DNA from: an uncultured bacterium
GTDB lineage: Bacteria > Chlamydiota > Chlamydiia > Chlamydiales > SM23-39
Length of the DNA stretch: 27,395 bases
Assembly (NCBI GenBank): GCA_964355615.1
Contig: CAYHED010000001.1
Coordinates: forward strand, 1 to 27,395
Reading direction: 5' to 3'
Positions 1-16,300 of the stretch are shown in pieces. The notes under the pieces are model-generated. The model was not told the DNA's origin, did no database searches, and was given only the letters and a program-made list of their open reading frames with translations. Made by a program: the position numbers and the translations under genes. Each line of letters begins with the position of its first letter. Position 1 is the first letter of the stretch.

Positions 1-223
1 GGAGAACTCCTAAAGCCTGGACGCACTCTTCTTCATTGAGGGGAGGTTTTTTCCCCTGAGCTGCATCTTTGATCCCTTGGATCACGGCGTCGAGGTCTAC
101 ACCTACGCCAATGGATTGGAGGTTTTTACCAATGAGGTGTCCCATCGCCTCAGAGACTTTTGCCACATCGGGCTCTTCTGCAAAACAGGCGACTGCGCTT
201 AAGATACAAAGGTATTTAAACAT
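1..223 (-). CDS. mip: Mip / FKBP-type peptidyl-prolyl isomerase, N-terminal part, runs off the left edge of the window
   Basis: Absent from the ORF track. Hand translation from the ATG at 223 gives MFKYLCILSAVACFAEEPDVAKVSEAMGHLIGKNLQSIGVGVDLDAVIQGIKDAAQGKKPPLNEEECVQALGVL with no stop: a signal peptide plus an FKBP N-terminal dimerisation-type segment. The start overlaps the hisS stop, and mip neighbours aspS/hisS in Chlamydia. Confidence 0.8.
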   Translation of the reverse strand, partial: MFKYLCILSAVACFAEEPDVAKVSEAMGHLIGKNLQSIGVGVDLDAVIQGIKDAAQGKKPPLNEEECVQALGVL

Positions 224-1499
224 AGAGATCCTTCAGTGTGAAAACCAGTTGATCGAAGGGCACCTCTTTTTGCTCTCTCGTCTGGAGGTTTTTGAGCTGA
301 CCCTTTTGTTGGGAGAGCTCTTCGGTGCCGAGGATGACGCAGTAGGTAGCGCCGATTTTCGTCGCATTTTGGAGGGCTGTTTGCATTTTCTTCGCTTGGA
401 GTTCGATGTCGCAGGGAATTTTTGCATGCCGACAAGCGGTGGCGAGCAAAAAGCACTGCTCTCTCGCTTCGTCTCCGAGGGGGACGAAATAGACAAAGGG
501 AGTGATCGCTGGTGTCCAGGGGAGCCCTTGTGCGAGGAGTACGTGAATCACTCGCTCCAACCCAGTGGCCCACCCCGCAGCGGGAAGGTCGGGGCCTCCG
601 AAAGTGGAAATGAGTCCATCAAAACGGCCCCCTCCGCCAATGGTGTTTTGAGCGCCGAGGTGGCCCCCAACCACCTCAAAGACCGTCTTGTTGTAGTAGT
701 CCAAGCCTCTAACAAGCCGGTCATCGACCACGTAAGGGATCCCGATCTTTTCGAGCAGCGCGCGCACCTGGTCAAAGTGCTCTTTCGCTTCAGGAGTCAA
801 ATAGTCCAAAATGGAGGGAGCCCCTTTCAGAAGCTGTTTGTCTTTGGGGTCTTTTGAGTCGAGGATCCTCAGCGGATTTTTCTCAAAACGGACCTGACTA
901 TCGGCCGACAGCTCCGCAAACTGGGGACGTAAAAAGTCCATCAGCGCCGTTCGAAAAGCCAAACGGGAAGCGGGATCGCCCACCGTATTGAGGTGCACTG
1001 TCAAATCTCTAATGCCCAGCCGCTGGTAAAAGGTGTAGAGGAGGTCGATCACCTCGGCATCTTGCTCGGGCCCCGCGACGCCAATGGCCTCGATCCCAAA
1101 CTGGTGGTGCTGTCGGTACCGTCCCGACTGAGGGCGCTCATAGCGAAACATTGGCCCGATATAGAAAAACTTATGAGTGGAGCGAGCAGAACCGAGTTTG
1201 TGTTCCAAAAAGGAACGCATCACAGAGGAGGTTCCTTCCGGTCTCAGGCACATCGGCCGGTCTCCTTTGTCGGTGAAAGTGAACATCTCCTTGGTCACGA
1301 TGTCGGAGGTTTCTCCCACCCCGCGGTTAAAGAGCTCAGCCCTTTCGTAGATGGGCGTCCGGATTTCACCGTAGCCGTAATCGACGGCGATCTGGCGGGC
1401 CACGGCTTCGACATACTGCCAAAGCGAAGAGAGGCGCCAGGTTTCGTCCGTGCCGTAGGGCAAGACGTCAAAAGTTCCTTTAGGGGCATTCAAGTCCAT
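216..1499 (-). CDS. hisS: Histidine--tRNA ligase
   Basis: 427 aa with class II HisRS motifs: APKGTFD, LRPEGT, FRYERPQSGRYRQHHQFGIE, RGLDYY, GGGRFDGL, GLER, and a C-terminal anticodon-binding domain. Confidence 0.98.
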   Translation of the reverse strand: MDLNAPKGTFDVLPYGTDETWRLSSLWQYVEAVARQIAVDYGYGEIRTPIYERAELFNRGVGETSDIVTKEMFTFTDKGDRPMCLRPEGTSSVMRSFLEHKLGSARSTHKFFYIGPMFRYERPQSGRYRQHHQFGIEAIGVAGPEQDAEVIDLLYTFYQRLGIRDLTVHLNTVGDPASRLAFRTALMDFLRPQFAELSADSQVRFEKNPLRILDSKDPKDKQLLKGAPSILDYLTPEAKEHFDQVRALLEKIGIPYVVDDRLVRGLDYYNKTVFEVVGGHLGAQNTIGGGGRFDGLISTFGGPDLPAAGWATGLERVIHVLLAQGLPWTPAITPFVYFVPLGDEAREQCFLLATACRHAKIPCDIELQAKKMQTALQNATKIGATYCVILGTEELSQQKGQLKNLQTREQKEVPFDQLVFTLKDLYV

Positions 1500-1511: not shown

Positions 1512-2075
1512 CTATACCAAAAGGGGGAGCAGAGAGTCAATCTGGAGTATCCAGTGATAGAGGGTACTGTTGATGGGATTGTGGGTGTGCTCGAAGTGCA
1601 GTTTCGACACTAGCTCCATGAAGGGGAAGGGGAGCCACTTTTCTCCCACATACTCGCTCAAGTAGTAGCCGAGGGTATGTTGCTGCCCCTCCGGATAGGA
1701 TTGGATCTTCCCTAAAAAAGGGCTCAAGGCAGGGGCATTCTGTTGATCGTCGAGCAGTTTGCGCCAGATATCGGCCATCCGGTGCAGAAACAGGGTGTCT
1801 TGGCTCTTATTTTCCTTCTTAAGGGTCTCCAACTCACCCCTCAGCAGCAACAGGTGAATGCGGCTGCTTGAGGGGATTTTTCTCTGCAACGGGATCTCGA
1901 ACAGCTGAAATAATTTCCGCAAGAGAAACAAAACGTAGAGCAAAAGGCTGGGCTTTTGCTTGTCGGGGTCTTCGGGCCCTCCCCCAAAAGACCCTCTCCG
2001 GTCTTGCTGGAGTTCTTCGACCCGGTATCGGTCATAGGGGTCTCTCGGGCCAACAGGGGGGGTGTACGATTCCAT
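1512..2075 (-). CDS. Hypothetical protein, probably conserved in environmental chlamydiae
   Basis: 187-aa ORF with host-like composition, co-oriented with hisS and ending 12 nt before its start. No domain recognised. Confidence 0.7.
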   Translation of the reverse strand: MESYTPPVGPRDPYDRYRVEELQQDRRGSFGGGPEDPDKQKPSLLLYVLFLLRKLFQLFEIPLQRKIPSSSRIHLLLLRGELETLKKENKSQDTLFLHRMADIWRKLLDDQQNAPALSPFLGKIQSYPEGQQHTLGYYLSEYVGEKWLPFPFMELVSKLHFEHTHNPINSTLYHWILQIDSLLPLLV

Positions 2076-2143
2076 AACCGCATCTTAAGAGACAGCGCAT
2101 TTTTTATTTATCTTTTTTCTATTTTACAGGCATAAGAAGATCA

Positions 2144-4267
2144 ATGGAAGTAGTTTGCTCAAAACAACAGAACCTCATCCAAAAAATAAAATCCTGGCTG
2201 GTGAAATTGTCCATACGATTTGGCAGCCAAGACGCATCTATTCAGCGGCTACTTGGAAATGTCTATCTATTTGATAAATTGACCAGTGAACAAAAAATAT
2301 TAGTCACCAAATCTATTCAACCGATTTATTACGAAAGTGGCGAGGTCATTTTTAAACAAAATGCGGAAGGGGATAACTTTTATCTCATTAAAAGTGGGGT
2401 CGTTAGTATATGTTTTTTCCCTCCGGAAGGAAACGCCGAAATTGTTCTCGCCCGCCTTGAAGCTGGAGATTTTTTTGGAGAACAAGCTCTTTTAGGGAGT
2501 CTCCCAGAAAAAAGAAATGCCAGTGCAAAAACTCTCACTAAAACAACCCTTTACGCCATCTCTCATTCCGTGTACCAAAAAATTTTAAATGCCAATGTTG
2601 CGGAGATATTAAAAAAAATCGGGGAGCGGGAACTTTTAGAGAATCTTGATAAAAATCTAGAGGCCTTTGGCCTTTTAAAAAACGACTTAGGAGAAGTGCT
2701 AAACTATTCAGACGGCCAAGTTATTTTTAAAGCTCGAGAGATTGCTGATCGATCCTATTTTATCCTTTCAGGAGAGGTGGTGATCGAGTTCCCGGGACAA
2801 GATGCTTCGGCACATAGGACAGAGCTAGGCGCGGGAGAATTATTTGGAGAGTTGGGAGTTTTGGAGCAAATTCCACGTGCAGGCACAGCGAGAGCAAGGG
2901 GAAGTCTCCGATTGCTCTCCTTTAAAGGAGATGCATTTCGCAAGCTTTATAAAGAATCTTCCGAGTTACAACGGTTTGTTCGTGAGCTTAAAGACGTTTA
3001 TCCTCTTTTGAATCAAGGAACAGTTAGGTTGTATCACAGTAAGTTTCTTAATTTAAAATCCATTAATGCCAATTATCATTTAGGGGACAATCGCCTTGTT
3101 ACAACATCAAAAGTGATTGGAATGCCCATTTTCGCCATGTCGCATAATGAATTAGGCGCTGCTGAAACTGTACATTTTGCTCGTGGCGCGGATATTCGAC
3201 GAAGATTGATGATTCTCGGGTATAAAATCCTTGGGGTTTCCTGTTTTGGCGAGTGGGATGAGCTAGGTGAAGTTTGTGGCTTGATTTTGCAACAAAAAAA
3301 GATCAGTGACGAACAGATTGAGTCCTTCAAAAAAACGGGCAAGTTAAATCTCTCGAAATTCAAGATTCTTCCTTCGGAACAAAGAAACGAAACCATCTGT
3401 TTCTGTATGAAGGTATCTAAAGGAACCATCTATGATGCGATGTCTCAAGGTGTGAATAATCTAAGTGACATGATAAAGAAAACCGGGGCCGGAAGTGTAT
3501 GCGGCACTTGTCAGCCTAGAATTGTCGAGCTTTTGGGAATGCAAGCTTGGACTGCTGTTCGATTCATTGAAAAAGTACCCCTCACTTCAAATATTTGTTC
3601 TTTTAGGTTCCTCCCAACCGACCTTGCGCAGTATAGATATCAGCCCGGGCAGCATATTGTTATTCAAGCGATGATCAGTGGTCAATTTGTGAGTAGGAGC
3701 TATACACTGACTTCAGTGCCAGATCGAGATCATTTTATCGAAATTACTGTGAAGAGGGAGTCTCAGGGAGCTTTTTCAAATTGGCTTTTTGATCAGGCAA
3801 ATGAAAGTTCGCTGATTCGCATTTCCCAGCCACGAGGAGATTTTGTTTTAACACCAGAGCCAGATGTTCCGATGGTTTGTTTTGTGGGAGGGATTGGAGT
3901 GACTCCTGCTCTGGCATTTGCCAGATATTTGGTAGCCCATTCCAAGGAATCCCGTTTGCATATTGACTATTCTTGTAAAACGGATAAGGATTTCATTCTC
4001 ACGGAGGAATGGAAATCGATGACAGCAGCGCAGAAAAATATTACCATCCAACTGAGAGCCACAGCAGACAATCATCGACTGAGTGAGGATGCTATAGATC
4101 ATGTCTGCGGACAGTTGAAAGGGTGTAAGTTTTATATCTGTGGTCCTAAGGACTTTGAGCAATTTGTTGTTAATTATTTAAAAAAATGTCAGATATCTAC
4201 AGATAGGATCAGGGTAGAAGAGTTTATACACGCCGGAAGTCCGGTCAGCAGAACAATTGAAATTTAA
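2144..4267 (+). CDS. Multidomain reductase: two cNMP-binding domains, NirB/rubredoxin-reductase C-terminal-like segment, BFD-like [2Fe-2S] domain, FNR-type FAD/NAD(P)-binding reductase
   Basis: cNMP cassettes FFGEQALLGSLPEKRNA and LFGELGVLEQIPRAG; BFD signature ICFCMKV...GAGSVCGTCQP; FNR motifs PGQH, RSYTLTS, GAFSNWL, GGIGVTP, FYICGP, EEF. Confidence 0.88.
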   Translation: MEVVCSKQQNLIQKIKSWLVKLSIRFGSQDASIQRLLGNVYLFDKLTSEQKILVTKSIQPIYYESGEVIFKQNAEGDNFYLIKSGVVSICFFPPEGNAEIVLARLEAGDFFGEQALLGSLPEKRNASAKTLTKTTLYAISHSVYQKILNANVAEILKKIGERELLENLDKNLEAFGLLKNDLGEVLNYSDGQVIFKAREIADRSYFILSGEVVIEFPGQDASAHRTELGAGELFGELGVLEQIPRAGTARARGSLRLLSFKGDAFRKLYKESSELQRFVRELKDVYPLLNQGTVRLYHSKFLNLKSINANYHLGDNRLVTTSKVIGMPIFAMSHNELGAAETVHFARGADIRRRLMILGYKILGVSCFGEWDELGEVCGLILQQKKISDEQIESFKKTGKLNLSKFKILPSEQRNETICFCMKVSKGTIYDAMSQGVNNLSDMIKKTGAGSVCGTCQPRIVELLGMQAWTAVRFIEKVPLTSNICSFRFLPTDLAQYRYQPGQHIVIQAMISGQFVSRSYTLTSVPDRDHFIEITVKRESQGAFSNWLFDQANESSLIRISQPRGDFVLTPEPDVPMVCFVGGIGVTPALAFARYLVAHSKESRLHIDYSCKTDKDFILTEEWKSMTAAQKNITIQLRATADNHRLSEDAIDHVCGQLKGCKFYICGPKDFEQFVVNYLKKCQISTDRIRVEEFIHAGSPVSRTIEI

Positions 4268-4272
4268 AAGAT

Positions 4273-5370
4273 ATGGGAAATGGCAAATACGGTTTTTTGA
4301 TTCCGTCTCTTGTTCCGATTTTCATTATAATGGCATTTGTCACAAATCGTCCCGCATTATTTCTGTATATTATTTCGTTTGCTTTTCTGTTTTCTATTGT
4401 TCTTGATTGTCTCGTTCCTCGTGATAAGCTGTATTGTTATGATGAAGTCATTGCAACTCCTGAAAATGATGGGAGGCTATCTTCATGGATTTATCAACTC
4501 CTCTCTGGGAGTTTCCTAATATTACACCTCATTGCTTTGATTTTAGGAATGTATATTGCGAGCTATGAATATCCTTTGAGTCCTTGGATTTTTTATCTAC
4601 TTCCGTTTGGCTTTGAGGGTTCAGTAGTGCTGACAGTATGTCATGAATATTTCCATAAAGAGAGTTTGATTGAAAAAAATATCGCTAGATTTTTTGGGAG
4701 CCTGGAGTTTTGGAGTGTACATGAATATGAACATCTATTCTATCACCATCATCCCGATATTTCTTGTACGCCGGATGATTTATCTCATGCAAGAATCAAT
4801 CAATCTGTTTATTCATATGTTTATCATGCAATTATTCATAACTATGTGTATGCATGGGAGAAGCAAAAAGAGCTTTGTAGTCTGTCGGGAGTGCCATTTT
4901 TCAATATTTTAAAAAACCCTTTGTTAAAATGGTTGTCTGTGTCAGCAATAATTATTGCAATTATTTATGTTTTTTTTGGGTATAATGGCGTTCTGTTTTT
5001 TTTAGCGCAAGCCGCCCTATCAATGTTCATATTTATAGCAAGTGCTTATAATCAGCATTACGGACTCACGCGCCGTTTAAAAGCAGATGGGACGTACGAA
5101 GAATTCACGTTCATGAATGTTTGGGCATTCAACCATTTTATCTCTAGTAAGCAAGCATTCAACGCAACGCACCATGCACATCACCATCTCTTTCAGCTAT
5201 GTCGTTATCCTCACCTAAAAGCTGTTTCAAAAGGGCCTCTTTATCCTTTTGGATTGTCGATGACGTTTCTTCTCTGCCTCATTCCTGGTCTTTGGTATAG
5301 GATAGTGAATCCCCGAGTGAAAGAGATCTATCGATTGCGGGACGAATATGAGAGTAAAGGACAATTATAA
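4273..5370 (+). CDS. AlkB/XylM-family integral-membrane diiron hydroxylase/desaturase
   Basis: Several N-terminal hydrophobic helices. His boxes HEYFHK, EHLFYHH, NQHYGL and HHAHHH line up with AlkB HELxHK, EHxxGHH, NYxEHYG and RHxDHH. The C-terminal YPFG...LIPGLWYRIVNPRV is AlkB-like. Substrate unknown. Confidence 0.85.
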   Translation: MGNGKYGFLIPSLVPIFIIMAFVTNRPALFLYIISFAFLFSIVLDCLVPRDKLYCYDEVIATPENDGRLSSWIYQLLSGSFLILHLIALILGMYIASYEYPLSPWIFYLLPFGFEGSVVLTVCHEYFHKESLIEKNIARFFGSLEFWSVHEYEHLFYHHHPDISCTPDDLSHARINQSVYSYVYHAIIHNYVYAWEKQKELCSLSGVPFFNILKNPLLKWLSVSAIIIAIIYVFFGYNGVLFFLAQAALSMFIFIASAYNQHYGLTRRLKADGTYEEFTFMNVWAFNHFISSKQAFNATHHAHHHLFQLCRYPHLKAVSKGPLYPFGLSMTFLLCLIPGLWYRIVNPRVKEIYRLRDEYESKGQL

Positions 5371-6812
5371 TGTCAGCTAAAGTTGCGGTTATAGGTGCAG
5401 GTTGGTGTGGAATAGGAGTTCTGCGGACTTTATTAGAAAAGGGGCACCAAGTCGATTTATATGAAAAGAATGACGATGTCGGAGGAACGTGGCATCCGAG
5501 TAATTGTTACGCGGACTTACGGCTGCATGACTTAGCAAGACAGGTGGCTTATTTTGATTATTCTTTGCCTGATCACATTGACATTACTGAGCGAATTCCT
5601 TCTGAGGTGATTTTTCTTTACCTGCAGAATTATTGCAAGGCAAAGAAACTATATGAACATATGATTTTTAACTCTCGTGTATTAAAAATAAACTATGATT
5701 CGAAGCGCAATAAAAGCAAGATCTATATCCAGAAGGGGGATGGTCAAGTAATTGAACGAGAGTATGATTACATCGTCTACACAAATGGGTATAGCTGCCG
5801 TAACATTCCTAAACTCTCCGGGGCTGATCAGTTCTCCGGGGAAATTGTTCATTCTTTTGATGTTTCCTCGGCCCAATTGAGCTCCTATGTTCGACAAAAT
5901 AAAAAAATTACAATCCTTGGCGCGAGCAAAACTGCGACTGATTTTGCGCTGTCTTTACACAAATATGGCTATCAATTTTCTTGGCTTTCAAGAGCGCCTT
6001 ATTGGTTTATACGCTTGGACCCACTACGTCAATTCTTGAAGGATAAAAAATCGGGCAGATTCCCAAATCTTTGGTATAAGATGGGGGTGACGCTCAGTTT
6101 TTTTGCAGCTCAAATCATTCCCGTTCCTTCTATAGTGATGTGTTTTTTTAGGTTTTTTAATCTCATTCATACTTATGGAGAGAAACATTTTGATTTTAGA
6201 AAGTTTCATCTTGGGTATATTGATGAAAACCAAATGCGTGATTTAAAAAGACTCTATTCTGAATTTGGTGTTTTAGGAGATATTTCGTTGCTACAAGAGA
6301 AAGGGATCTGTCTGAAAAGCGGTAAGTTCATTGAGAGCGATGTGATTATTTGCTGTACAGGGTCTGGGGCGAAGAATCCGGATGCAGATGTCGAATTTCA
6401 AGTGGATGGACAACGCTTCTGCACTAGCGAGGTCAAGCAGGTTTATAATAGTAAAGTAATTCCCCAGCTGCCAAATTTGATCTTCACTGCGTACCAAAGT
6501 TTTGCTTTAGGGACTATTAATGGGCTGATTCAAGGAAATTGGATAGCAAAATACATAGAACTCCATCCTAGCCAGGACTACTTAGAAAAATACGCTATTA
6601 CTTTTGATCATTCCTTTTTCCTTCATCCTGTGCTTTTTGATTCATCTGACACCTTGTTTCATAAATCACATGCGCTTGCGAGTCCGTATTTTAAAAGCAA
6701 TGAGTTGTCTAAATGGTCCTATTACAAGTGGATTTTGAAGCAGTACTTTGCCGTCCACCCTTCCCTTCCCCTGGACTTTCATTTACCTGACCGCTCGTAT
6801 AAAATGGATTGA
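5370..6812 (+). CDS. Flavin-containing monooxygenase (FMO/BVMO-like)
   Basis: GAGWCG FAD Rossmann motif, DVGGTW, FSGEIVHS (FxGxxxH fingerprint), second dinucleotide motif ILGASKTA, DVIICCTG. Start overlaps the upstream stop (TAATG). Confidence 0.88.
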   Translation: MSAKVAVIGAGWCGIGVLRTLLEKGHQVDLYEKNDDVGGTWHPSNCYADLRLHDLARQVAYFDYSLPDHIDITERIPSEVIFLYLQNYCKAKKLYEHMIFNSRVLKINYDSKRNKSKIYIQKGDGQVIEREYDYIVYTNGYSCRNIPKLSGADQFSGEIVHSFDVSSAQLSSYVRQNKKITILGASKTATDFALSLHKYGYQFSWLSRAPYWFIRLDPLRQFLKDKKSGRFPNLWYKMGVTLSFFAAQIIPVPSIVMCFFRFFNLIHTYGEKHFDFRKFHLGYIDENQMRDLKRLYSEFGVLGDISLLQEKGICLKSGKFIESDVIICCTGSGAKNPDADVEFQVDGQRFCTSEVKQVYNSKVIPQLPNLIFTAYQSFALGTINGLIQGNWIAKYIELHPSQDYLEKYAITFDHSFFLHPVLFDSSDTLFHKSHALASPYFKSNELSKWSYYKWILKQYFAVHPSLPLDFHLPDRSYKMD

Positions 6813-6813
6813 T

Positions 6814-8568
6814 ATGGATATTTCTGTTGAGGCATTGCGCGATTGTTTCTTTTTTTCGGGTCTTAACGACAATGATCTGTTACAAGTTTTTGGCAAATTA
6901 CAAAGAGTGGATTTGTCTGAAAATGAGTATTTATTTAAAGAGCGCGACCAAGGAGACTCATTGTATGTACTCATCAAAGGGAAATTGGCGGCGGCGACAC
7001 AACACAAAAGTGTAGAGAAGGTGATAGGATTTATAAGGCCAGGAGAGGTCGTCGGCGAATTAAATATATTCTCAAATGCGCCCAGAAGCGCGTCGGTAAA
7101 AGCGATCCACCCATCCATCGTTTTGCGCCTGAGTCATGAGGATTTCCAATCGCTATGCTACAAAAATCCGAAAATTTTGTGGGAAGTCTCTCAGTTAATC
7201 GCGAGAAGATCCCAATCCAATATGGAGATTCTTCGTGAGGGGAAAACGAGCCAATCTCAACTGATAGCGATTGTCTCGGTAGGTCAGCAAATGGATATAC
7301 AAAAACTGATGTCCGACTTGGCCGGTAACAGCAATGAAACGATGAATATCAGTTTCATTGATTATAGCAGCCTGAAAGCGGATCGCCATTTAATTCATAG
7401 TGGTCGTACGATTATTTACGGTATGGATTATGCTGAATTACATAAAAACAGCGAGGTCTTACAGCTCTCTGATAAAGTAGTTTTCGCTATCAATGCGGAG
7501 CATGATAACTATGATTCCTTAAAGAAAATATGGGATGAGTGTGTTGAAAGACCCACAGCACATATGGAAAGGGAGTTAATGCTTTTGCAGACTGCAGATA
7601 AACCTTTCTATCTCAACACGCAAAAATACTTCGGGTTAGCAAATTTCTCGAAATGGTATCACGTTGCAGTTCAGTCGCCGAAAACGGTTCAGCGCTTCCT
7701 GAGATTGCTGAGTGGGAATGCTATTGGAGTCGTCATCGGAGGCGGAGGCGCGAGAGGTTGGGCTGCCGCTGGTGCAATCAAAGCTTTGCTCGATCACAAT
7801 ATTGCCATAGATTATATCGGGGGCTCGAGCATAGGTGCTGTAGTGGGCTGTATGTACGCTCTGTCTGAGAATTATGAGCAATTTATGGGGCTTGGAAAGA
7901 CCATGGGCAATCCAGTTAAATTACATGAGTTAACTTGGCCGCTCGTTTCGATTTTTAGCGGAGCAGCCCCGACGGAGTGGACTCAGGGAATTTGTGGAGA
8001 TGTTATGATTTCTGACTTCAGTGTGCCTTACTTTGCCATGTCAACCAATCTATCCACTATGAGTGAACACATTTGGGATAGAGGATTTTTATGGCAGGCG
8101 CTAAGGGCCACTGGCTCAGCCCCCATGCTTGTGCCTCCGCTTACCTATAATAACCAGCTCCATGTAGATGGGGGTGTGCTCAATAATTTTCCTGTAGATG
8201 TGATGCATGCTAAGTTGGAAAACCGAGGGTTCGTTATTGGAATCGATATTACCAGATCCTCTCTGGATGTAAAAGCATACGACTTCCCCCCGACCATTAA
8301 GTTTTGGAAGGCCTTACAAATGAAAATAAAGGGCGATGCCTATATTGATATCGTGGAAACCATGGATCGAACGATGATGGCCACCTCTATGGAAAAAACA
8401 GTCAGGAACGGCAAGAGATGTGATTTGCTCATTAGGCCCAAGTTGGATGAGTTTGGGTTGCTCGATTTCGCTAAGAAAGATGAGATCCTGGAAAGAGGGT
8501 ACAAGGAAGCCGATGAGCAGTTAAGTAAGTTCTTCGGGTTGGGCAAACGGGATGGCCGGTCTGGCTGA
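6814..8568 (+). CDS. cNMP-binding domain fused to patatin-like phospholipase (NTE/RssA-like)
   Basis: Start set at ATG 6814, 1 nt after the FMO stop and in frame with the listed 6748 ORF. cNMP cassette VGELNIFSNAPRSA; patatin motifs GGGGARG, GSSIG (GxSxG) and DGGVLNNFP. Confidence 0.92.
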   Translation: MDISVEALRDCFFFSGLNDNDLLQVFGKLQRVDLSENEYLFKERDQGDSLYVLIKGKLAAATQHKSVEKVIGFIRPGEVVGELNIFSNAPRSASVKAIHPSIVLRLSHEDFQSLCYKNPKILWEVSQLIARRSQSNMEILREGKTSQSQLIAIVSVGQQMDIQKLMSDLAGNSNETMNISFIDYSSLKADRHLIHSGRTIIYGMDYAELHKNSEVLQLSDKVVFAINAEHDNYDSLKKIWDECVERPTAHMERELMLLQTADKPFYLNTQKYFGLANFSKWYHVAVQSPKTVQRFLRLLSGNAIGVVIGGGGARGWAAAGAIKALLDHNIAIDYIGGSSIGAVVGCMYALSENYEQFMGLGKTMGNPVKLHELTWPLVSIFSGAAPTEWTQGICGDVMISDFSVPYFAMSTNLSTMSEHIWDRGFLWQALRATGSAPMLVPPLTYNNQLHVDGGVLNNFPVDVMHAKLENRGFVIGIDITRSSLDVKAYDFPPTIKFWKALQMKIKGDAYIDIVETMDRTMMATSMEKTVRNGKRCDLLIRPKLDEFGLLDFAKKDEILERGYKEADEQLSKFFGLGKRDGRSG

Positions 8569-8571
8569 ACG

Positions 8572-8598
8572 CAAACTCGGCCTTTTCAGCCGAGTTTG
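8572..8598. terminator. Hairpin between convergent genes, candidate bidirectional terminator
   Basis: CAAACTCGGC-cttttca-GCCGAGTTTG, a perfect 10-bp stem 3 nt after the patatin stop. Confidence 0.55.
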
Positions 8599-8627
8599 GG
8601 ATAAGAGAAATGGCGCAAAATGACGCC

Positions 8628-8662
8628 CATTCGGTCAATTTGAGACTCAAATTGACGGAATG
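8628..8662. repeat. 35-bp near-perfect palindrome (REP-like)
   Basis: CATTC-g-GTCAATTTGAG-a-CTCAAATTGAC-g-GAATG: one mismatched pair around a single central base. Confidence 0.7.
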
Positions 8663-8693
8663 AAGAGCAATTTGCTAAAGACAGGTTCCAAGG

Positions 8694-9344
8694 TTAGGTG
8701 TATTCATACTCTCTTCTGAGGTAGGCGGCCCGACGGCCTTTCGCCGAAATCGATTTAGGAAAATCGATTCGTTCTATATTTGAACGGACCTCGTAGCCGA
8801 CAAAAGGGGCGCTCGCTTCCTGAATGGCGACTGTTGCTAATGAAAAGTCTTCATCTGAAATCGCCCCATCATAGACAAACCGCAGCTCTAAATACTTCTT
8901 TTTAGGATCTGAGTCTACTGTAACGATGCGCAAAGAAGGGGACACCTTTCCGAGTAGCGCTTCTTGCATATCAAGAAGTAATACAGAGCTATGGAGCGTC
9001 TCTGGAGTCTTCAAAAGAAAGGCCCTGTTTTCTTTGGGATAATTTGGCAAGTTCGGTTCTTTTCTTAAATATGCAAATTTTCCCCAAAGGGGAATCTGTT
9101 TTGGGGCATCCACTCGAAGAATATATTCCTCATTGAAATGATTTGGGTAACTATCTGTTTCCGTCCTAGCGAGGTTTGCAATTTCTCTTACGCGCTCCGT
9201 GATTTCCCCGTCATAGAAAAAATAGATGAGTGCTTTTTTATTTTTATCGTCCGTATCCACAATGACGGCGCGTAGTTCCGGCGTCACCGCATTGAGCAGG
9301 GCATTTTGAATGCTCCATAGCAGGTAATATATGGAAGGGTCCAT
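8694..9344 (-). CDS. Putative toxin immunity protein made of two tandem ~100-aa repeats (MafI2-like)
   Basis: The pattern ALLxxVxPxLRxVxVD...FxYDGxI...RxDxPKxI..G..AYLRxE occurs twice. The start lies 3 nt after the stop of the Ntox50 toxin frame. Confidence 0.65.
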   Translation of the reverse strand: MDPSIYYLLWSIQNALLNAVTPELRAVIVDTDDKNKKALIYFFYDGEITERVREIANLARTETDSYPNHFNEEYILRVDAPKQIPLWGKFAYLRKEPNLPNYPKENRAFLLKTPETLHSSVLLLDMQEALLGKVSPSLRIVTVDSDPKKKYLELRFVYDGAISDEDFSLATVAIQEASAPFVGYEVRSNIERIDFPKSISAKGRRAAYLRREYEYT

Positions 9345-9347
9345 TGA

Positions 9348-9900
9348 TCAACTCTTTGGTGCTGTAGGTACTATGTGAACTCCGTCTTTAGCATAATGGA
9401 TCTTTCCCCAGGTTGTGAGTGTTTTTTTCTTAGTCGTGAGATCCACTGCATATCCTATTATTTCTCCAAAATCGATCACTTCTTTGTAGCCGGCAACTCC
9501 AGGAGCGCTTGTTCCTTCCGTGAATCCCGTTCCTGCAAACTGGTTGACCAATTTCTGAGGATTGGGATGTGTGAGGATACTGGGATATTCTTGCTTCTTG
9601 AGTTTTTCTAAATAATGGCGGTGGCCGAGGAGGTGCTTGCCCTGCTTGGCTTCGAGGGTAAAAGAAAGGTGCGTTGCGTACTGTACTCCGTACTGTCTCT
9701 CTGAAGATGTATTCAATATCGTCGATGCGACCATCTATCTCCCCATCGCCACACCCCCAATGGCAAAGAATAGTCATCCCGCCATAACTCACGGGTTTTG
9801 GGGTCGCACAAGAGTAGCCCTCATCTTCCTCATCCTCATAGTCCCAGTCAGCAAAAAGAGACAATGAACAAAGGAGCATCAACACTAGGCGATAACACAT
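9348..9900 (-). pseudogene. Secreted polymorphic toxin with C-terminal Ntox50-type domain, interrupted by a frameshift
   Basis: The ORF from 9900 begins with a signal peptide (MCYRLVLMLLCSLSLFA-D) and an acidic stretch. The toxin motifs KQGKH..GH..Y, AGTG, KEVIDFGEIIG and GKIHYAKDGVHIVP lie in another frame (9348-9734). Removing one base from the A4 run at 9660-9663 joins them into a 183-aa ORF. Confidence 0.7.
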
Positions 9901-9926
9901 AGTTCCCCCACCAAAGAGTTCCAGAC

Positions 9927-9955
9927 ACTATGAAGAAAAAAATTTACTGCGTCAA
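9927..9955 (-). promoter_or_regulatory. Candidate sigma66/sigma70 promoter for the toxin gene
   Basis: TTGACG-17 nt-CATAGT on the minus strand, ending 26 nt before the ATG at 9900. Confidence 0.45.
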
Positions 9956-9982
9956 GAAATTTGTTCGGGTGGGAAATAAGGA

Positions 9983-10012
9983 TTGACAGAAGGGGGGGGA
10001 GGTCTTTACCCT
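9983..10012 (+). promoter_or_regulatory. Candidate sigma66 promoter for uhpC, with a G8 tract in the spacer
   Basis: TTGACA (9983-9988), 18-nt spacer containing G8 (9992-9999), TACCCT (10007-10012). Confidence 0.4.
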
Positions 10013-10052
10013 TTTGTTGTTTTGGCCTTCAATTTATTCCCGAGGAGTGCGC

Positions 10053-11444
10053 GTGAGCGTTCTTGACTTTTTCCGACCCGCCCCGAACATTGCAGAGATC
10101 CAAGATCCGGAGCTCATTCAAAAAAATTATAAGTACTGGCGCATCCGGACCTTCTATGCGATGTATGTGGGCTATGCTTTCTACTACTTCACACGTAAGA
10201 GCTTTACCTTCGCCATGCCCGCTATGCAAACGGCGCTTGGGTTGGGCAAGTTCGAGCTTGGCCTCTTGGGCAGCGTTCTCAGCTTAAGTTACGGGGCAAG
10301 CAAGTTCTTGAGTGGGATTTTAGGCGACAAGTCGAACCCCCGTTACTTCATGTCGGTCGGGTTGCTCCTCACGGGCCTATTCAATATCCTCTTCGGTGCC
10401 TCTTCTGTTTTTTGGGTCCTGGCGATTTTCTGGGGCTTGAACGGGTGGTTTCAGGGGTGGGGCTGGCCTGGCTGCGCAAAACTCTTGACCCATTGGTACT
10501 CCCAGTCTGAAAGGGGGCGCTGGTGGAGCTTTTGGAACACTTCTCATAACTGTGGGGGGGCTCTGATCCCGATCGTCGTCGCGGGGCGTACGGAGTACTT
10601 TGGGTGGCGCTACGCCCTCTACGTCCCTGGAGGCATTTGTATTCTCGCGGGCCTCTTCCTCATGAATCGGCTTCGCGATACGCCCCAGTCTTTAGGCCTT
10701 CCCCCCATTGAAAAGTACCGCAATGATTACCCCAACGGCGCCTCGAAAACCGACACCCGCACCAGTCTTACCGTCAAAGAACTCCTCTGGGACTACGTCC
10801 TCTGCAATAAGTATATCTGGGTTCTCGCCATCGCCCAGTTTTTTATCTACGTGATCCGGACAGCAGTCAATGACTGGAGCATGTTTTACCTCATTGAAGT
10901 GAAGTCCTACACCCACTTGCAGGCCGGTTTTTGCTTGGTGTGGTTTGAGATAGGGGGCTTTTTAGGCAGTCTGACGGCCGGATGGTCATCCGATGTCCTC
11001 TTTAAGGGCAAGAGAAACCCGGTCAATGTCCTCTTCACATTCGGCGTCCTGATCTTGCTCGTCGCCTTCAAGCTCTTTGAAATGCCCTTTCCTCTCCTCG
11101 ATGCGGCCTTCCTCTTTGGCTTCGGCTTCTTCATCTTTGGGCCACAGATGCTCATTGGCGTTGCTGTAGCGGAACTCTCCCACAAAAAAGCTGCTGCTAC
11201 GGCAACGGGCTTTGCCGGCTGCTTCGCCTATCTCGGCGCTGCTGCGGCAGGGGGCCCTCTCGGCGCCATTACCAAAATCTGGGGATGGGATAGCTATTTA
11301 TTGACTCTCTTCATTTGCGGTGTCATTGGAGCGCTATTGATGATCCCCCTCTGGTCCGTTAAAACGGGTCCCAGAGAGGAACCCCCAGTGGTTGCTGCTA
11401 CGGACGGGCCGACAGAGAAGGCGGAGACGGCGAGTCAAGGATAA
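10053..11444 (+). CDS. uhpC: Chlamydial hexose-phosphate transporter UhpC (MFS, GlpT/UhpT family)
   Basis: YKYWRIRTFYAMYVGYAFYYFTRKSF, ERGRWWSFWNTSHNCGG, GPQMLIG and AATATGF are OPA-family motifs. Start set at GTG 10053 behind a GAGGAG SD; the ORF track extends it to 10014. Position between hisS and dnaE matches Chlamydia. Confidence 0.95.
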   Translation: MSVLDFFRPAPNIAEIQDPELIQKNYKYWRIRTFYAMYVGYAFYYFTRKSFTFAMPAMQTALGLGKFELGLLGSVLSLSYGASKFLSGILGDKSNPRYFMSVGLLLTGLFNILFGASSVFWVLAIFWGLNGWFQGWGWPGCAKLLTHWYSQSERGRWWSFWNTSHNCGGALIPIVVAGRTEYFGWRYALYVPGGICILAGLFLMNRLRDTPQSLGLPPIEKYRNDYPNGASKTDTRTSLTVKELLWDYVLCNKYIWVLAIAQFFIYVIRTAVNDWSMFYLIEVKSYTHLQAGFCLVWFEIGGFLGSLTAGWSSDVLFKGKRNPVNVLFTFGVLILLVAFKLFEMPFPLLDAAFLFGFGFFIFGPQMLIGVAVAELSHKKAAATATGFAGCFAYLGAAAAGGPLGAITKIWGWDSYLLTLFICGVIGALLMIPLWSVKTGPREEPPVVAATDGPTEKAETASQG

Positions 11445-11486: not shown

Positions 11487-12629
11487 CTATGAGGTCTTCA
11501 ACTCTTCAGGTTGTTTGGGCATAGTCCGCTCTAAAACAATCCACCAAAGTTGAACTCGGTTGTCTTTCAAATGGTGTTCGCTTCGATAATTAGCTTGCCA
11601 ACCTGAATTACCAAAATGCCAATGAATCCAAGCGTCGCAATAAATATCTATCCATTTGTGAATATGATGGGGATCGAGCAAAAGAAGGACTGGTATCGAT
11701 AAAGCCTTCTTGAAGCTCCATTTAATTTGTGCAGCGCCAAAGTGCTTTCTGTCTATTACGGAAGTTAATCGATAATCTTCTGTTTTATCATACCTTCTTA
11801 GTTCTGCAAAAAAAGGAGTGGCATTTTGTGTAATTCCTTCATCTCCTGTTGGATAACAGCCGGAATGATACTTATCTAAAAGATAGGACAACAACTGTTC
11901 TTTCACTTTAACCTGCTTGACTGTTTGGTGTAAGCAAGAAATAAAAATTCTATGAGAACGAGAGTCTGGTTTCATGAGCTTGGCTGCCAACTCAAACATG
12001 TCCGCATATATTTTATTCTGAGCATTCCTGTCTGATCTATCTTTTGCAGGGACATAATGTTCAATTGTATCCATAAATGTAACAGCGTCAAATTGACCGT
12101 AGAGTTGCTCTCTGAGTTTTGAGTTTTCGGCAATAGATTTCCAATTGGTGCAGATGACTTCTATTCCATGCTTTTTTTTCGCTGCAGCTGCTTGTTCTGA
12201 AGTTATATTCACACCTACAACATAAATCCCTTTAGATCGCGCATAATTCAACCAGTCCCCGTAACCACATCCTATGTCTATTAAAGAATCTCCTGGAGAT
12301 AAATTGAGCTCTTTTAACATAAACTCCCATTTATCAATCTGAGCTTGATGGCGGTTTTTCGATAAGTCTCCATCGTAAAAATTGAATCCCAGATCTCTGC
12401 CATCTTCACTTAAGGACGAAAGAAATACATTTCCAAACTGATAGCCTCTTTGAATTCTGATTTCTGGGTTGAGAATGCTCCAACCGAATCCGTAATAGGT
12501 TAAATCATCCAACAACTGGAATCCAAACCAAATAAAAAAACAAAAAGGGGATAGAACAATCCCTAAATATATACTTAAAAAAATAAAAGAAATGTTAATT
12601 GCTGCATTTCTATCAATTCTGAGCTTCAC
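11487..12629 (-). CDS. Class I SAM-dependent methyltransferase resembling cyclopropane-fatty-acyl-phospholipid synthase, with an N-terminal membrane segment
   Basis: LIDIGCGYG motif I, GVNITSEQ, FDAVTFMDTIEHY and KYHSGCYP parallel Cfa motifs. GTG start behind a GGAGG SD; hydrophobic N-terminus; AT-richer than the flanking core genes. Confidence 0.75.
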   Translation of the reverse strand: MKLRIDRNAAINISFIFLSIYLGIVLSPFCFFIWFGFQLLDDLTYYGFGWSILNPEIRIQRGYQFGNVFLSSLSEDGRDLGFNFYDGDLSKNRHQAQIDKWEFMLKELNLSPGDSLIDIGCGYGDWLNYARSKGIYVVGVNITSEQAAAAKKKHGIEVICTNWKSIAENSKLREQLYGQFDAVTFMDTIEHYVPAKDRSDRNAQNKIYADMFELAAKLMKPDSRSHRIFISCLHQTVKQVKVKEQLLSYLLDKYHSGCYPTGDEGITQNATPFFAELRRYDKTEDYRLTSVIDRKHFGAAQIKWSFKKALSIPVLLLLDPHHIHKWIDIYCDAWIHWHFGNSGWQANYRSEHHLKDNRVQLWWIVLERTMPKQPEELKTS

Positions 12630-12663
12630 TATACCTCCCTAGAGGGTTGTTTTAGTTCCCGTG

Positions 12664-12698
12664 TATACCGAAATAACTTTTCAAGTTGCTTCAGTATA
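12664..12698. repeat. Minimal TATAC...GTATA palindrome made of two ERIC-like element termini
   Basis: TATACCGAAATAACTT-ttc-AAGTTGCTTCAGTATA; the arms resemble the termini at 12791, 13111 and 13248. Confidence 0.6.
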
Positions 12699-12790
12699 TA
12701 ACGTACCGTATTAATAATTTTTTTTCAATAAACAGCTGCATCTATCTGGTTGGTAGGGTGTTGCCTATTTTAAAGGGTTCTATTGTGCTA

Positions 12791-12922
12791 TATACTCAAA
12801 CAACTTGAAGAGTTGGTTTTTGGCTGCGTCGGCGGGGACCCCGGATGGGTCGCTCGCTCCGAACAAAAATTCTGGGGACCCTCCTTGCCTTGTTGCATAA
12901 TTCTTCGCTTTCTGGGTAGGGC
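12791..12922. repeat. Partial, inverted relative of the 13111-13248 element
   Basis: 12791-12816 TATACTCAAACAACTTGAAGAGTTGG matches the reverse complement of 13223-13248 at 25/26 nt. Blocks TTGTTGCATAA (12890-12900) and TTTCTGGGTAGGGC (12909-12922) are exact inverted copies of 13190-13200 and 13170-13183. Confidence 0.7.
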
Positions 12923-12985
12923 TCTCGTGTCTGTGTCCGAATGCCCTAGATGAAGAATGGACGGTACTTAGTTTGCAGCAGGAAA

Positions 12986-13101
12986 AACGATGGAAATGAT
13001 GAAATGAGAAAATGATAAAAATATTGGTTCGCCGCAAAGCGGCGATGCGGCGAAGCCGCAAGGTTTTTTTATCATTTTCTCATTTCATCATTTTTATCAT
13101 T
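12986..13101 (+). repeat. 116-bp Y-shaped hairpin element, copy 1
   Basis: Long AT-rich inverted repeat enclosing two GC-rich mini-hairpins, TCGCCGC-AAA-GCGGCGA and TGCGGC-GAA-GCCGCA. The 92-bp core 12998-13089 is identical to 22627-22718. Confidence 0.9.
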
Positions 13102-13110
13102 GACCTTGGT

Positions 13111-13248
13111 TATACCGAAACAACCTCTTGAGGAGAGGCAGTCGGGGAAGCCCCCGCTGCCCCATTCTGGCCCTACCCAGAAATTTGATTTATGCAACAA
13201 CGCCACCCTCCTTGCCAAATTCCCAACTCTTCAAGTTGTTTGGGTATA
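13111..13248. mobile_element. 138-bp ERIC-like MITE candidate
   Basis: Terminal inverted repeats TATACCGAAACAAC / GTTGTTTGGGTATA (13/14 match), TATA at both ends, no coding capacity. Confidence 0.6.
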
Positions 13249-13397
13249 AATAAGGCGAGATTGAGAAAGCGGGCCAACCTAGCCAAAGAGACCCTTTACT
13301 CCAGCTTGAAGCACCGGAATCCGACGATCAAAAACCCCCGCAAAAATTATGTATACTTTCACTCACTAAATTCCCGATTCTGGTATGCTCTGTTAGC

Positions 13398-16300
13398 ATG
13401 ACCTGGATCCCTCTGCACGTTCACTCTCAGTTCTCGATTCTCGACTCTTCTGCGTCGGTAGAAGACCTCGCTGAAACGGCTAAGCGCTATGGCATTCCCG
13501 CTCTGGCGATCACCGACACAGGCAATTTGTACGGCGCTGTCGAATTTTACAAGGCGTGCAAGGCGGCGGGGGTTAAGCCGATCATGGGCTGCCAGATCTG
13601 GGTGGCGCCAGGTGCGCGGACGGAGAAAAAACGGATCCCCGGCGTTCCCAACGGTTTCCCCATTGTGCTCCTTGCCAAAAACCTAAAGGGGTACCGCAAC
13701 CTCTGCAAGCTCTCTTCTATCGGATTTTTGGAGGGGTTTTATTACCAGCCTCGGATCGATAAGGAACTGCTCGCAGCTCACAGCGAGGGGCTTATTTGCT
13801 TATCCGGAGGGATGGAGGGGCCGATCGCCCATTCTATTTTGACGGGAGGGGCCGTTTTAGAGGAGATCGAGTGGTATCGGGGTGTGTTTGGAGCGGACTT
13901 TTATTTTGAGATCCAGCGCCAGCCTTTGAGTGAAAACGAGGTGGTTTCTGAAAATTGGCTCGCTCAGAAAATGCGCGACGCGGTTTCTTTCCAAGAGAAG
14001 GTGAATGGGAAGTTGATTGAGCTGTCGCGCAAATTGGGAGTGAAGCTCGTTGCGACCAATGACATTCACTACATCGGGCAAGAGGATTGGGAGGCCCATG
14101 AGGTGCTTCTCAACGTCCAATCGGGAGAGCCCTGCGAGATTTGGGAGCGAGATTCTCAGGGGAATGCCAAGGCAAAAGTGCCCAATCCGAAAAGGGAGGC
14201 GATGGCGACGCGGGAACTCTATTTCAAATCGCCTGAGCAGATGAAGGCCCTTTTTGCCGATGTGCCGGAGGCGATTGAGGAGACCGAACGGGTGGCGGCC
14301 CTTTGCAATTGCGAGATCGACTTTAAGACGAAGCACTATCCGGTCTTTGTCCCCCCCGCTTTAGAGGGACAACCTTGGACCAAAGAAGAGCGGGAAAAAG
14401 CGGCGGGGCAATTTCTTCACGATTTGTGTACCCAAGCCATTCCGACCCGTTACACGGCGGCCCATCTCGCGGCCGTGCAAAAAGTCTATCCTGGCAAAGA
14501 TCCGCTGCAAGTGGTGCAAGACCGGTTTACCTATGAGTTTGGGCTCCTCACTTCGAAGGGGATGTCCGACTATATGCTCATCGTCTACGACTTCATCGCT
14601 TGGGCCAAGAGGAAGGGGATTCCGATGGGGCCAGGTCGCGGTTCGGCTGCGGGTTCTATCATCGCCTACTTGACCGGCATTACTGATATCGAGCCGCTCC
14701 GATTCCATTTGTTCTTTGAGCGATTCATCAATCCGGAGCGGGTCTCCTATCCCGATATCGACGTCGACATCTGCATGGACAGGCGCCAAGAGGTGATCGA
14801 TTACGTCGTTGCCAAGTACGGCAAGGAAAAAGTCGCTCAGATCATCACGTTCGGCACGATGAAAGCCAAGATGGCGATTCGGGATGTGGGTAGGGTTCTC
14901 AATGTCCCCCTATCGAAGGTGAACCAGATTGCAGCTCTCGTCCCCGAAGACCCCACCATGACGTTGGAGCGGGCTTTTCAGATCGATCCTGAGCTGACAC
15001 GCCTCATGGAGACCGATGAAGAGGCGAGAAGGGTCCTCGAGATGGCGAAAAAAGCAGAGGGCTCCATTCGCAATACGAGCACTCATGCGGCGGGGCTCAT
15101 CATCTCAGCCAATCCGATTACCGATCACGTTCCTGTGTGCACCGCGAAAGACTCTGCGATGGTCGTGACCCAATACGCGATGAAGCCAGTCGAGAGCGTT
15201 GGGATGCTCAAGATCGACTTTTTGGGACTCAAAACGCTCACCTGTATCCAAAAATGTGCCGATGCGGTGGCTCGCAATACGGGCAAACGGATCAACTGGG
15301 CCAACCTCCCTTTAGACGACCAGCCGACGTTCAATCTCCTCAACCACGGGAAAACACTCGGCGTCTTCCAGCTTGAATCGGGCGGCATGCAGGACTTGGC
15401 CAAGCAGCTCCATATCGATACGTTTGAAGAGATCATCGCTGTCGGCGCCCTCTACCGCCCAGGTCCGATGGACATGATCCCCTCCTTCATCGCCCGCAAA
15501 CATGGCAGAGAGCCGATCGATATCGACCATCCGCTGATGAAAGACATCCTCTCGGAGACCCATGGCGTGATGGTGTACCAAGAGCAGGTGATGCAGATTG
15601 CGAGCGCTCTTGCGGGCTACACTCTCGGAGAGGGCGACGTCCTCCGCCGCGCGATGGGGAAAAAAGACAAAGAGGAGATGTCCCGCCAGAGGGAAAAGTT
15701 TACCCACGGCTGCGCCGCAAAAGGGATTGAATCAGAGACCGCAAGGCTGATTTTTGATAAGGTGGAAAAGTTCGCCTCCTACGGCTTTAACAAATCCCAC
15801 GCCGCCGCCTATGCCTACCTCTCTTACGCAACTGCCTACTTTAAAGCGAATTATCCAGGCGAGTGGATGGCAGCCCTCATGACTTGCGATCGCGATGACA
15901 CGACGAAAGTGGCCAAATTCATCGGCGAGGCCAAAGCGCTCCATCTCCCCGTCCTCTCTCCCGATATCAACCAGGCAGGCGCCGAATTCTGGGCGACCTC
16001 TGCAGGAATACGCTTCGCGATGGCGGGGATTAAGGGCGTCGGCGAAGGGGTCGTCGAAGAGATTTTAAAAGAGCGCGCCAAAGGGCTTTTTGAGAGCCTC
16101 TACAACTTTATTCAGAGGATGGATAAGACCAAGATCGGGAAAAAACAGATCGAGCTCCTCATCGATGCCGGGGCTTTTGATTTTACTCTCTGGAGCAGAG
16201 ACGCGATGCGAGAGAGCGTCGAGGCGATGTACGATGAGGCTTTTCGCGATCAAAAAGAGGCTTCGCTCGGAGTCTTGAACCTCTTTGCTCTGATTGAAGA

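Follow-up and report, generated by a model that had tools for sequence, protein, structure and literature searches.

Candidate cyclic-nucleotide control of an AlkB-type hydroxylase pair within a genus-specific, putative lipid-oxidation operon of a chlamydial genome

In the XylM/XylA system, the hydroxylase XylM is served by XylA, a polypeptide that joins a [2Fe-2S] cluster to an FNR-type reductase. Ferredoxin and FNR modules also feed AlkB in the ferr_ferrR_AlkB fusions of Leptospira, Limnobacter and Polaromonas, and a donor of this kind was shown to be active (PMC8918992, PMC4021335). In the nitric oxide synthase (NOS) of Sorangium cellulosum (scNOS), a 2Fe2S-FAD-NAD reductase module serves the oxygenase covalently and, by the account in PMC3701330 (citing Agapie 2009), the enzyme was self-sufficient in experiments. 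The window analysed here, 27,395 nt long, is one whole contig (C1) of a chlamydial genome (G000; 1.46 Mb, 187 contigs, 89% complete). At 2144-8568 it holds a four-gene operon, in which a reductase with two domains for binding cyclic nucleoside monophosphates (cNMP) is followed by an AlkB-family hydroxylase. In bacteria, the nucleotides cAMP and cGMP are known mainly for controlling transcription (through CRP), channels and a few enzymes. At somewhat better than even confidence, we favour the explanation that the operon encodes a cNMP-controlled, two-component AlkB-type hydroxylase, to which a flavin monooxygenase and a cNMP-domain patatin were added in this genus to make a lipid-oxidation operon.

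The four open reading frames (ORFs) lie on the plus strand at 2144-4267, 4273-5370, 5370-6812 and 6814-8568, and their coordinates confirmed the co-orientation and the gaps of 5, -1 and +1 nt that the original prediction had described. They are probably co-translated, because the gaps are so small. In order, the genes encode a reductase composed of two cNMP-binding domains, a BFD-type [2Fe-2S] domain and an FNR-type module (2xcNMP-BFD[2Fe-2S]-FNR), an AlkB-family di-iron hydroxylase, a class B flavin monooxygenase, and a patatin-like lipase with a cNMP-binding domain (cNMP-patatin). Catalytic or ligand motifs were intact in all four products. The enzyme classes named earlier (patatin, AlkB-type, FMO/BVMO-type) were borne out by Pfam and PDB matches together with the motifs, and Pfam and the motif strings agreed on three cNMP domains with intact GE...R cassettes in genes 1 and 4. 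A 10-bp perfect hairpin without a T-run was read from the sequence directly after the stop codon of gene 4 (8571..8599, plus strand). It is a possible terminator of the operon; a scan for consensus terminators did not list it.

Gene 1 (2144..4267, plus strand, 707 aa) was assigned as a reductase from Pfam, PDB sequence matches, a family alignment and an AlphaFold2 (AF2) model. Pfam placed two cNMP domains (124.9 bits over two stretches), Fer2_BFD, FAD_binding_6 and NAD_binding_1 in the protein. The phosphate-binding cassettes read FGEQALL..RNAS (111-127) and FGELGVL..PRAGT (234-248), the cysteines of the BFD-type [2Fe-2S] cluster are C419, C421, C453 and C456, and the FNR-like motifs for FAD and NAD(P)H are RSYT (518), GGIGVTP (582) and CGP (666). 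In a sequence search of the PDB, residues 469-692 matched flavohaemoglobin and residues 32-275 matched PKA RI-alpha. As in the PKA regulatory subunit and PKG, two consecutive cyclic-nucleotide-binding (CNB) domains with intact cassettes are aligned over this stretch, but the controlled partner here would be an electron-transfer chain in cis and not a kinase, and no inhibitor or pseudosubstrate segment was identifiable in gene 1. An alignment of 27 reductase family members at 28-55% identity (A1) was used to judge conservation. The four cluster cysteines, G112, E113, G235 and R245 were invariant, R124 and E236 were at least 90% conserved, and the RxYT, GGIGxTP and CG motifs were invariant or nearly so. 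Since the reductase family as a whole keeps the cNMP cassettes, it would be a reasonable inference that cNMP controls the supply of electrons through gene 1. The AF2 model (pLDDT 80.9, pTM 0.46) was good for the individual domains and contained an extra beta-rich domain at about 292-368, plus helices to 398; Foldseek matched it to PKA-R/PKG and to FNR-type reductases. The docking of the domains was left uninterpreted because of the pTM.

Gene 2 (4273..5370, plus strand, 365 aa) was assigned to the AlkB family of integral-membrane di-iron hydroxylases from PDB matches, histidine boxes and hydropathy; the Pfam match was FA_desaturase. Solved AlkB chains were matched over the full length (8sbb_A, E 6.3e-27, query 16-352 versus chain 41-372; 8f6t_A, E 2.6e-25), at an identity of only about 25-28%. 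The histidine boxes are HEYFHK (124), EHLFYHH (153), NQHYG (260) and HAHHH (301), and H124, H128, H154, H158, H159, H262, H301, H303, H304 and H305 were invariant in 22 relatives of gene 2. Kyte-Doolittle windows at 4-51, 72-100 and 215-259 were compatible, by hydropathy only, with three helix pairs. No NCBIfam model matched, AlkB models included, so gene 2 is classed by its sequence as a divergent AlkB subfamily. The genome has another AlkB-like paralogue, at 42% identity to gene 2 (L018; G000:C37:10588-11221), which is truncated by a contig end and adjoins genes for pyruvate/2-oxoacid dehydrogenase E1 and E2.

With the AlkB-AlkG-AlkT system of Pseudomonas putida GPo1 (8sbb, 8f6t), gene 2 has in common the full-length homology and the nine-histidine di-iron set; its hydropathy profile would allow six transmembrane helices. 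In contrast to that system, no rubredoxin was found (no PF00301 match in the 89%-complete genome), the operon is without alkJ, alkH and alkK, and the host is a small-genome chlamydia, not an alkanotroph. An AlkB/XylM-type enzyme needs an external electron chain, as had been pointed out in the original prediction, and gene 1 is the obvious candidate donor for gene 2, because the pair is conserved in at least eight other loci and the genome yielded no rubredoxin. As in XylM/XylA and the ferr_ferrR_AlkB fusions, the AlkB-family hydroxylase would thus be fed by a single polypeptide with [2Fe-2S] and FNR-type parts, in place of rubredoxin and rubredoxin reductase. Unlike in those systems, the cluster is BFD-type (not plant-type) and lies N-terminal to the FNR module, the reductase is a separate protein, and a tandem cNMP sensor and an extra beta-rich domain are present, which are found in none of the described partners. 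We regard the pair as a variant of the two-component AlkB/XylMA-type monooxygenases, with a wider implication at the level of the reductase family. The related scNOS gives an experimental precedent for the BFD-FNR part (PMC3701330); the Sorangium loci L048 and L053 match gene 1 residues 350-694 at 31% identity but are without the cNMP tandem.

The conserved unit is the pair of reductase and AlkB-like gene. At least eight independent loci, from chlamydia-like and other bacteria, carry it, with the two genes in one order or the other, and reductase homologues at 45-55% identity had an AlkB-like neighbour on every contig read. The loci include L010/L011 (L010 with a GMC oxidoreductase 2 kb away), L012 (two reductases and three AlkB-like genes), L015 (reversed gene order, with an SDR gene directly after the reductase), L016 (with a fragmentary AlkB-like gene) and L017, which is flanked by sodM, accD, dut and ptsN, an arrangement that we take to resemble chlamydial synteny. 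When AlkB-like relatives were approached from the AlkB side, a reductase homologue stood directly downstream in each of L117, L118 and L119. L117 belongs to a metagenome-assembled genome (MAG) of Gammaproteobacteria and also has SET and LRR genes; L118 has an FHA-cyclase at a distance of 3.5 kb. In the tree, the window reductase and all AlkB-linked reductases at 45-55% identity formed a clade (SH-aLRT 99); the L118 reductase fell outside it, in the next larger clade. An AlkB-like gene of 25% identity in G260 has no reductase neighbour and was not counted as a pair member.

The original prediction had put the four genes forward as one candidate system. Conservation of the four-gene combination was not supported: the neighbourhood search found the set only in the sister species (G001), and the combination is specific to the genus. 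In G001 the genes recur at 81-92% amino-acid identity and apparently in the same order, spread over two contig ends. Among a sample of 400 genomes of the phylum, which were also those searched for relatives of genes 3 and 4, the AlkB-like gene was present in the own genus and in one distant copy only.

Gene 3 (5370..6812, plus strand, 480 aa) was assigned from Pfam, PDB matches and motifs to the class B flavoprotein monooxygenases (FMO/BVMO-like). Pfam gave FMO-like at 50.8 bits (cut-off 22) and Pyr_redox_2, and residues 1-215 matched FMOs, Tmm and BVMOs in the PDB. The motifs GAGWCG (9), DVGGTW (36), FSGEIVHSFD (155) and GASKTA (184) are kept in three chlamydial orthologues, and a hydrophobic insert at 238-267 is conserved. 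Gene 3 carries neither the strict FMO signature FxGxxxHxxx[Y/F] nor the strict BVMO signature FxGxxxHxxxW[P/D], its FSGEIVHSFDV ending in V where the orthologues carry I or A. Orthologues at 40-42% identity occur in three other Chlamydiales genomes, in unrelated contexts. The closest one outside the genus (42%; L141:1064-8407, G136:C7) shares its direction with genes for a type I polyketide synthase (KS-AT-KR-ACP) and a Zn-dependent alcohol dehydrogenase.

Gene 4 (6814..8568, plus strand, 584 aa), assigned from the same three kinds of evidence, encodes an N-terminal cNMP-binding domain and a patatin-like lipid acyl hydrolase. A start at ATG 6814 was favoured over TTG 6748, because the alignments with relatives begin at residue 5-11 of the 584-aa form. 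Pfam gave 71 bits for cNMP and 92.1 bits for Patatin (cut-off 27.7), and the PDB matches were PlpD and PKA-R. The phosphate-binding cassette reads GEL..PRSAS (81-94), and the patatin motifs GGGARG (310), GSSIG (337) and DGG (452) are intact. The arrangement is that of the NTE/PNPLA6-like and bacterial cNMP-patatins (for example, Leptospira-annotated ones), in which a cNMP domain is followed by a patatin with GGGxRG, GxSxG and DGG. It differs from them in its single CNB domain, the lack of a transmembrane anchor and its place in an operon with oxygenases. We know of no demonstration of cNMP regulation in the cNMP-patatin class. Full-length cNMP-patatins of about 30% identity occur in five other Chlamydiales genomes, in contexts unrelated to the operon. 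A patatin gene that adjoins the pair in L117 was not counted as support for a link to a lipase: it has no CNB domain and only the catalytic motifs in common with gene 4.

No cyclase is encoded within the window, as the original prediction had noted in looking elsewhere for the signal. Elsewhere in the genome, two class III cyclases lie on contigs C10 and C6; one, of 478 aa, is a HAMP-cyclase, and the other, of 743 aa, is a CHASE2-cyclase. A host source, which had been considered, would therefore be unnecessary on the gene content of the bacterium. Class III cyclases were present in 31 of 61 related genomes. The genome contains four cNMP domains in total, three of them in the operon and one in a fusion with an Rce1-like protease.

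Under the explanation favoured at the outset, electrons from NAD(P)H would pass through FAD and the BFD-type [2Fe-2S] cluster of gene 1 to the di-iron centre of gene 2, which would hydroxylate an alkyl or acyl chain within the membrane. The tandem PKA-R-type module of gene 1 would block or permit electron transfer until cAMP or cGMP binds, and the nucleotide would be a product of the HAMP- and CHASE2-linked class III cyclases that the bacterium itself encodes. Two genes would have been added in this genus, one for a class B flavin monooxygenase that is putatively membrane-associated and one for a patatin lipase with a cNMP domain. A single nucleotide signal could then release acyl chains from glycerolipids as well as start their oxidation, giving an oxidised lipid or a remodelling of membrane lipids. 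What we infer here is that the CNB domains bind nucleotide, which way the control works, what the substrate is, and any link of genes 3 and 4 with the pair; that all four genes act in one pathway is suggested by two features, the operon structure and the common sensor domain.

Several observations weigh against this explanation. Relatives of the FMO-like enzyme or of the cNMP-patatin were found at none of the other pair loci, and never beside the pair outside the genus. The GC content at third codon positions (GC3) is 0.48 in gene 4 versus 0.33-0.39 in genes 1-3, and because of this difference the operon may be a mosaic built stepwise. Consensus scans for promoters and terminators over 1900-10100 gave no more sites than in shuffles, so no regulatory claim was drawn from them, and none of the sampled words occurred in RNA runs of the same lake samples. 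For the paralogue on C37, which is cut by the contig end, a second reductase was not found in the assembly. The inter-domain geometry of the AF2 model is unreliable, and no gating mechanism is readable from the modelled gene 1. Bacterial CNB-fold domains can bind other ligands, and NTE, the eukaryotic cNMP-patatin, reportedly does not bind cAMP.

Some of these points would be accommodated if only the reductase and AlkB-like pair were functional and the island were a mosaic, with the FMO-like enzyme and the cNMP-patatin as independent cargo acting on other substrates. We consider this possible, if rather doubtful. It agrees with the GC3 of gene 4 and with the absence of gene 3 and gene 4 relatives from every other pair locus. 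Outside the genus, the FMO orthologues stand alone or with the Zn-dependent alcohol dehydrogenase and type I polyketide synthase, and cNMP-patatins (about 30% identity) are known from five other Chlamydiales genomes, the AlkB-like gene being confined to the own genus and one distant copy. The same core block also has at least one further separate insertion of lipid type, a CMAS-like methyltransferase, so that the region appears to collect cargo. However, the gaps of -1 nt (genes 2/3) and +1 nt (genes 3/4) imply co-translation, the set recurs in the sister species with its high identity and apparently unchanged order, two of the three cNMP-domain proteins of the genome sit in this operon, and all four products plausibly act on membrane lipid. 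A different doubt concerns the sensor. The CNB domains could bind another ligand or serve only in dimerisation or docking, with the reductase as a constitutive redox partner; some bacterial CRP/FNR-type folds do bind haem, 2-oxoglutarate or other ligands, and no nucleotide-binding data for this reductase family were found in the literature searched. This is unlikely, given that the Gly-Glu and Arg of both cassettes are invariant or nearly so among the 27 members of A1, that the tandem aligns over its whole length with PKA RI-alpha and PKG, and that the genome has cyclases, with another one 3.5 kb from the pair in L118.

In a catabolic, sub-terminal oxidation, the AlkB-type enzyme would give a secondary alcohol, a dehydrogenase encoded elsewhere a ketone, and gene 3, as a BVMO, an ester, with the patatin as the esterase and alkyl chains from the host or environment as the carbon source. 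The enzyme classes fit the textbook sub-terminal alkane pathway, BVMOs are among the PDB relatives of gene 3, and oxidoreductase genes accompany the pair in L015 (the SDR right after the reductase) and L010 (the GMC oxidoreductase 2 kb away). Against this, the operon is without an alcohol dehydrogenase and gene 3 is without the W[P/D] ending of the BVMO signature; moreover, a 1.46-Mb genome points to a probable intracellular symbiont, and direct second-messenger gating of two enzymes would suggest signalling or remodelling, not catabolism in bulk. We judge this route distinctly unlikely. A role in defence, in which a cyclase product would trigger the cNMP-patatin to destroy membranes as a Pycsar/CBASS-like effector, is highly improbable. 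The PADLOC models for a Pycsar effector and PycC do match the CNB domains, the two genomic cyclases match at the domain level, and an ORF with an Ntox50 toxin domain lies in the same island, but the matches are confined to common CNB or cyclase domains. No cyclase adjoins the operon, those of the genome being HAMP/CHASE2 membrane sensors on other contigs, and three redox or oxygenase genes would have no place in such a system, the reductase family being tied to metabolic oxygenases. Following the PADLOC search, the defence reading was rejected.

The wider reductase family was collected by a profile search of 1.84 billion cluster representatives (clusters at 50% identity), in which at least 140 of the best 150 matches were full-length. 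The lengths of full-length members cluster near 680-710, 840-880, 1060-1140 and 1250-1316 aa. Inspected members were fused to NOS oxygenase (Sericytochromatia, Terriglobia), and NOS oxygenase fusions that bear the cNMP tandem are found in L037 (7013-10279), L038, L040, P0020, P0030 and P0040. Other members are fused to a nitrite/sulfite reductase (NIR_SIR; L044:6578-10753) or a molybdopterin oxidoreductase (L042:124-4572), some are fused to or adjoin multihaem cytochromes, and one 2xcNMP-BFD-FNR cassette is flanked by three P450 genes (L180:3338-10649). Because it is fused or adjacent to so many redox partners (NOS, nitrite/sulfite reductase, molybdoenzyme, cytochromes, P450s), the 2xcNMP-BFD-FNR reductase looks like a general cNMP-sensing electron-donor cassette. 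In the literature searched, which included few subscription journals, the architectures seen here that combine AlkB, patatin or NOS with cyclic-nucleotide binding were not described, and no paper found ties a CNB domain to these redox partners. The cNMP-sensing reductase and its AlkB-like pairing are apparently undescribed; the original prediction knew of no description of the gene combination either. Several clusters of a protein atlas join a cNMP-binding domain with the C-terminal domain of NDH-2, which hints at further cNMP-linked respiratory or redox enzymes.

More tentatively, and with less than even confidence, we propose that 2xCNB-BFD[2Fe-2S]-FNR proteins are a widespread, undescribed class of second-messenger-gated electron donors, through which cAMP or cGMP would directly and post-translationally control AlkB-type enzymes, P450s, NOS, nitrite/sulfite reductases and molybdoenzymes; in these chlamydiae, membrane sensor cyclases would switch on the formation of a lipase-fed oxidised lipid. 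If so, cAMP and cGMP would act in a mode of output that is new, by directly controlling how electrons flow into oxygenases, and a family of more than 100 clusters at 50% identity, annotated merely as 'ferredoxin-NADP reductase/CRP-like protein', would be explained. AlkB-type enzymes, known from alkane degradation, would gain a regulated, probably lipid-directed role in small-genome chlamydiae, in which the oxidised lipid might serve within a protist host as a signal or to modify a membrane. Enzymology would gain in the reductase a redox partner that is self-contained and switchable by a ligand, for use with AlkB, P450 and NOS oxygenase domains.

The operon lies in an AT-rich island of 7.9 kb (2076..10013) that was delimited by comparison with relatives and by GC3. 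The left flank consists of hisS (216-1499, minus strand; NCBIfam hisS equivalog, 466 bits) and a conserved 187-aa core ORF (orf187; 1512-2075, minus strand), which is kept beside hisS in relatives. The right flank is a uhpC-type sugar-phosphate transporter of the major facilitator superfamily (10014..11444, plus strand; NCBIfam UhpC, 527 bits). An insertion between hisS and uhpC had been predicted; the insertion stood, but orf187 separates hisS from the operon. Relatives of the same family and order share the core gene order hisS-orf187-uhpC-dnaE. The genes are directly adjacent in 15 or more relatives, uhpC was present in 23 of 25, and dnaE is directly beside uhpC in most of their loci. Because orf187 and uhpC are only about 100 bp apart in relatives, 2076-10013 was taken as an insertion. 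The predicted difference in composition was confirmed, with a GC content of 0.37-0.45 in the operon block and 0.53-0.55 in hisS, orf187, uhpC and dnaE; the respective GC3 values are 0.33-0.48 (four operon genes) and 0.65-0.70. The left junction of the island is shared by the sister species (locus L035).

The operon island is not an assembly chimera, because Logan contigs of independent lake metagenomes bridge every junction at flank depth. These contigs, from runs of other samples and studies, cross the two borders of the island and each of the three gene junctions with zero differences, and their depth across the island equals that of the flanks. Several studies have freshwater and lake metagenomes in which the DNA of the window was found again, and the best named relatives of HisS are 'Chlamydiales bacterium' MAGs at about 70% identity. 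Taken jointly with the whole of the favoured explanation, and at the same slightly better than even confidence, the operon would have been acquired horizontally by a freshwater member of the Chlamydiales.

The island holds two further ORFs on the minus strand (8694..9734), which are probably cargo unrelated to the operon. One, of 128 aa, has an Ntox50 domain (Pfam, E 3.5e-25), and the other, of 216 aa, had no Pfam match; they may be a toxin/immunity pair. A second AT-rich insertion of 1.95 kb lies between uhpC and dnaE, which are adjacent in relatives, and carries the methyltransferase gene (CMAS/cyclopropane-fatty-acid-synthase-like; 11487-12629, minus strand, GC3 0.34). In G001, the slot beside uhpC is occupied by a gene for a cNMP domain and Rce1-like protease, the G000 copy of which is on contig C63. 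At 12600-13500 of the window, metagenome contigs stack to about 10x the flank depth, and some skip 275-327 bp (joints 12877/13205 and 12906/13182), which suggests a small multi-copy element that is present or absent between strains. An amine-oxidase-type flavoprotein at 17017-18491 (minus strand) is broken into two ORFs, one of 156 aa and one of 332 aa, which fits a frameshift or a phase-variable gene.

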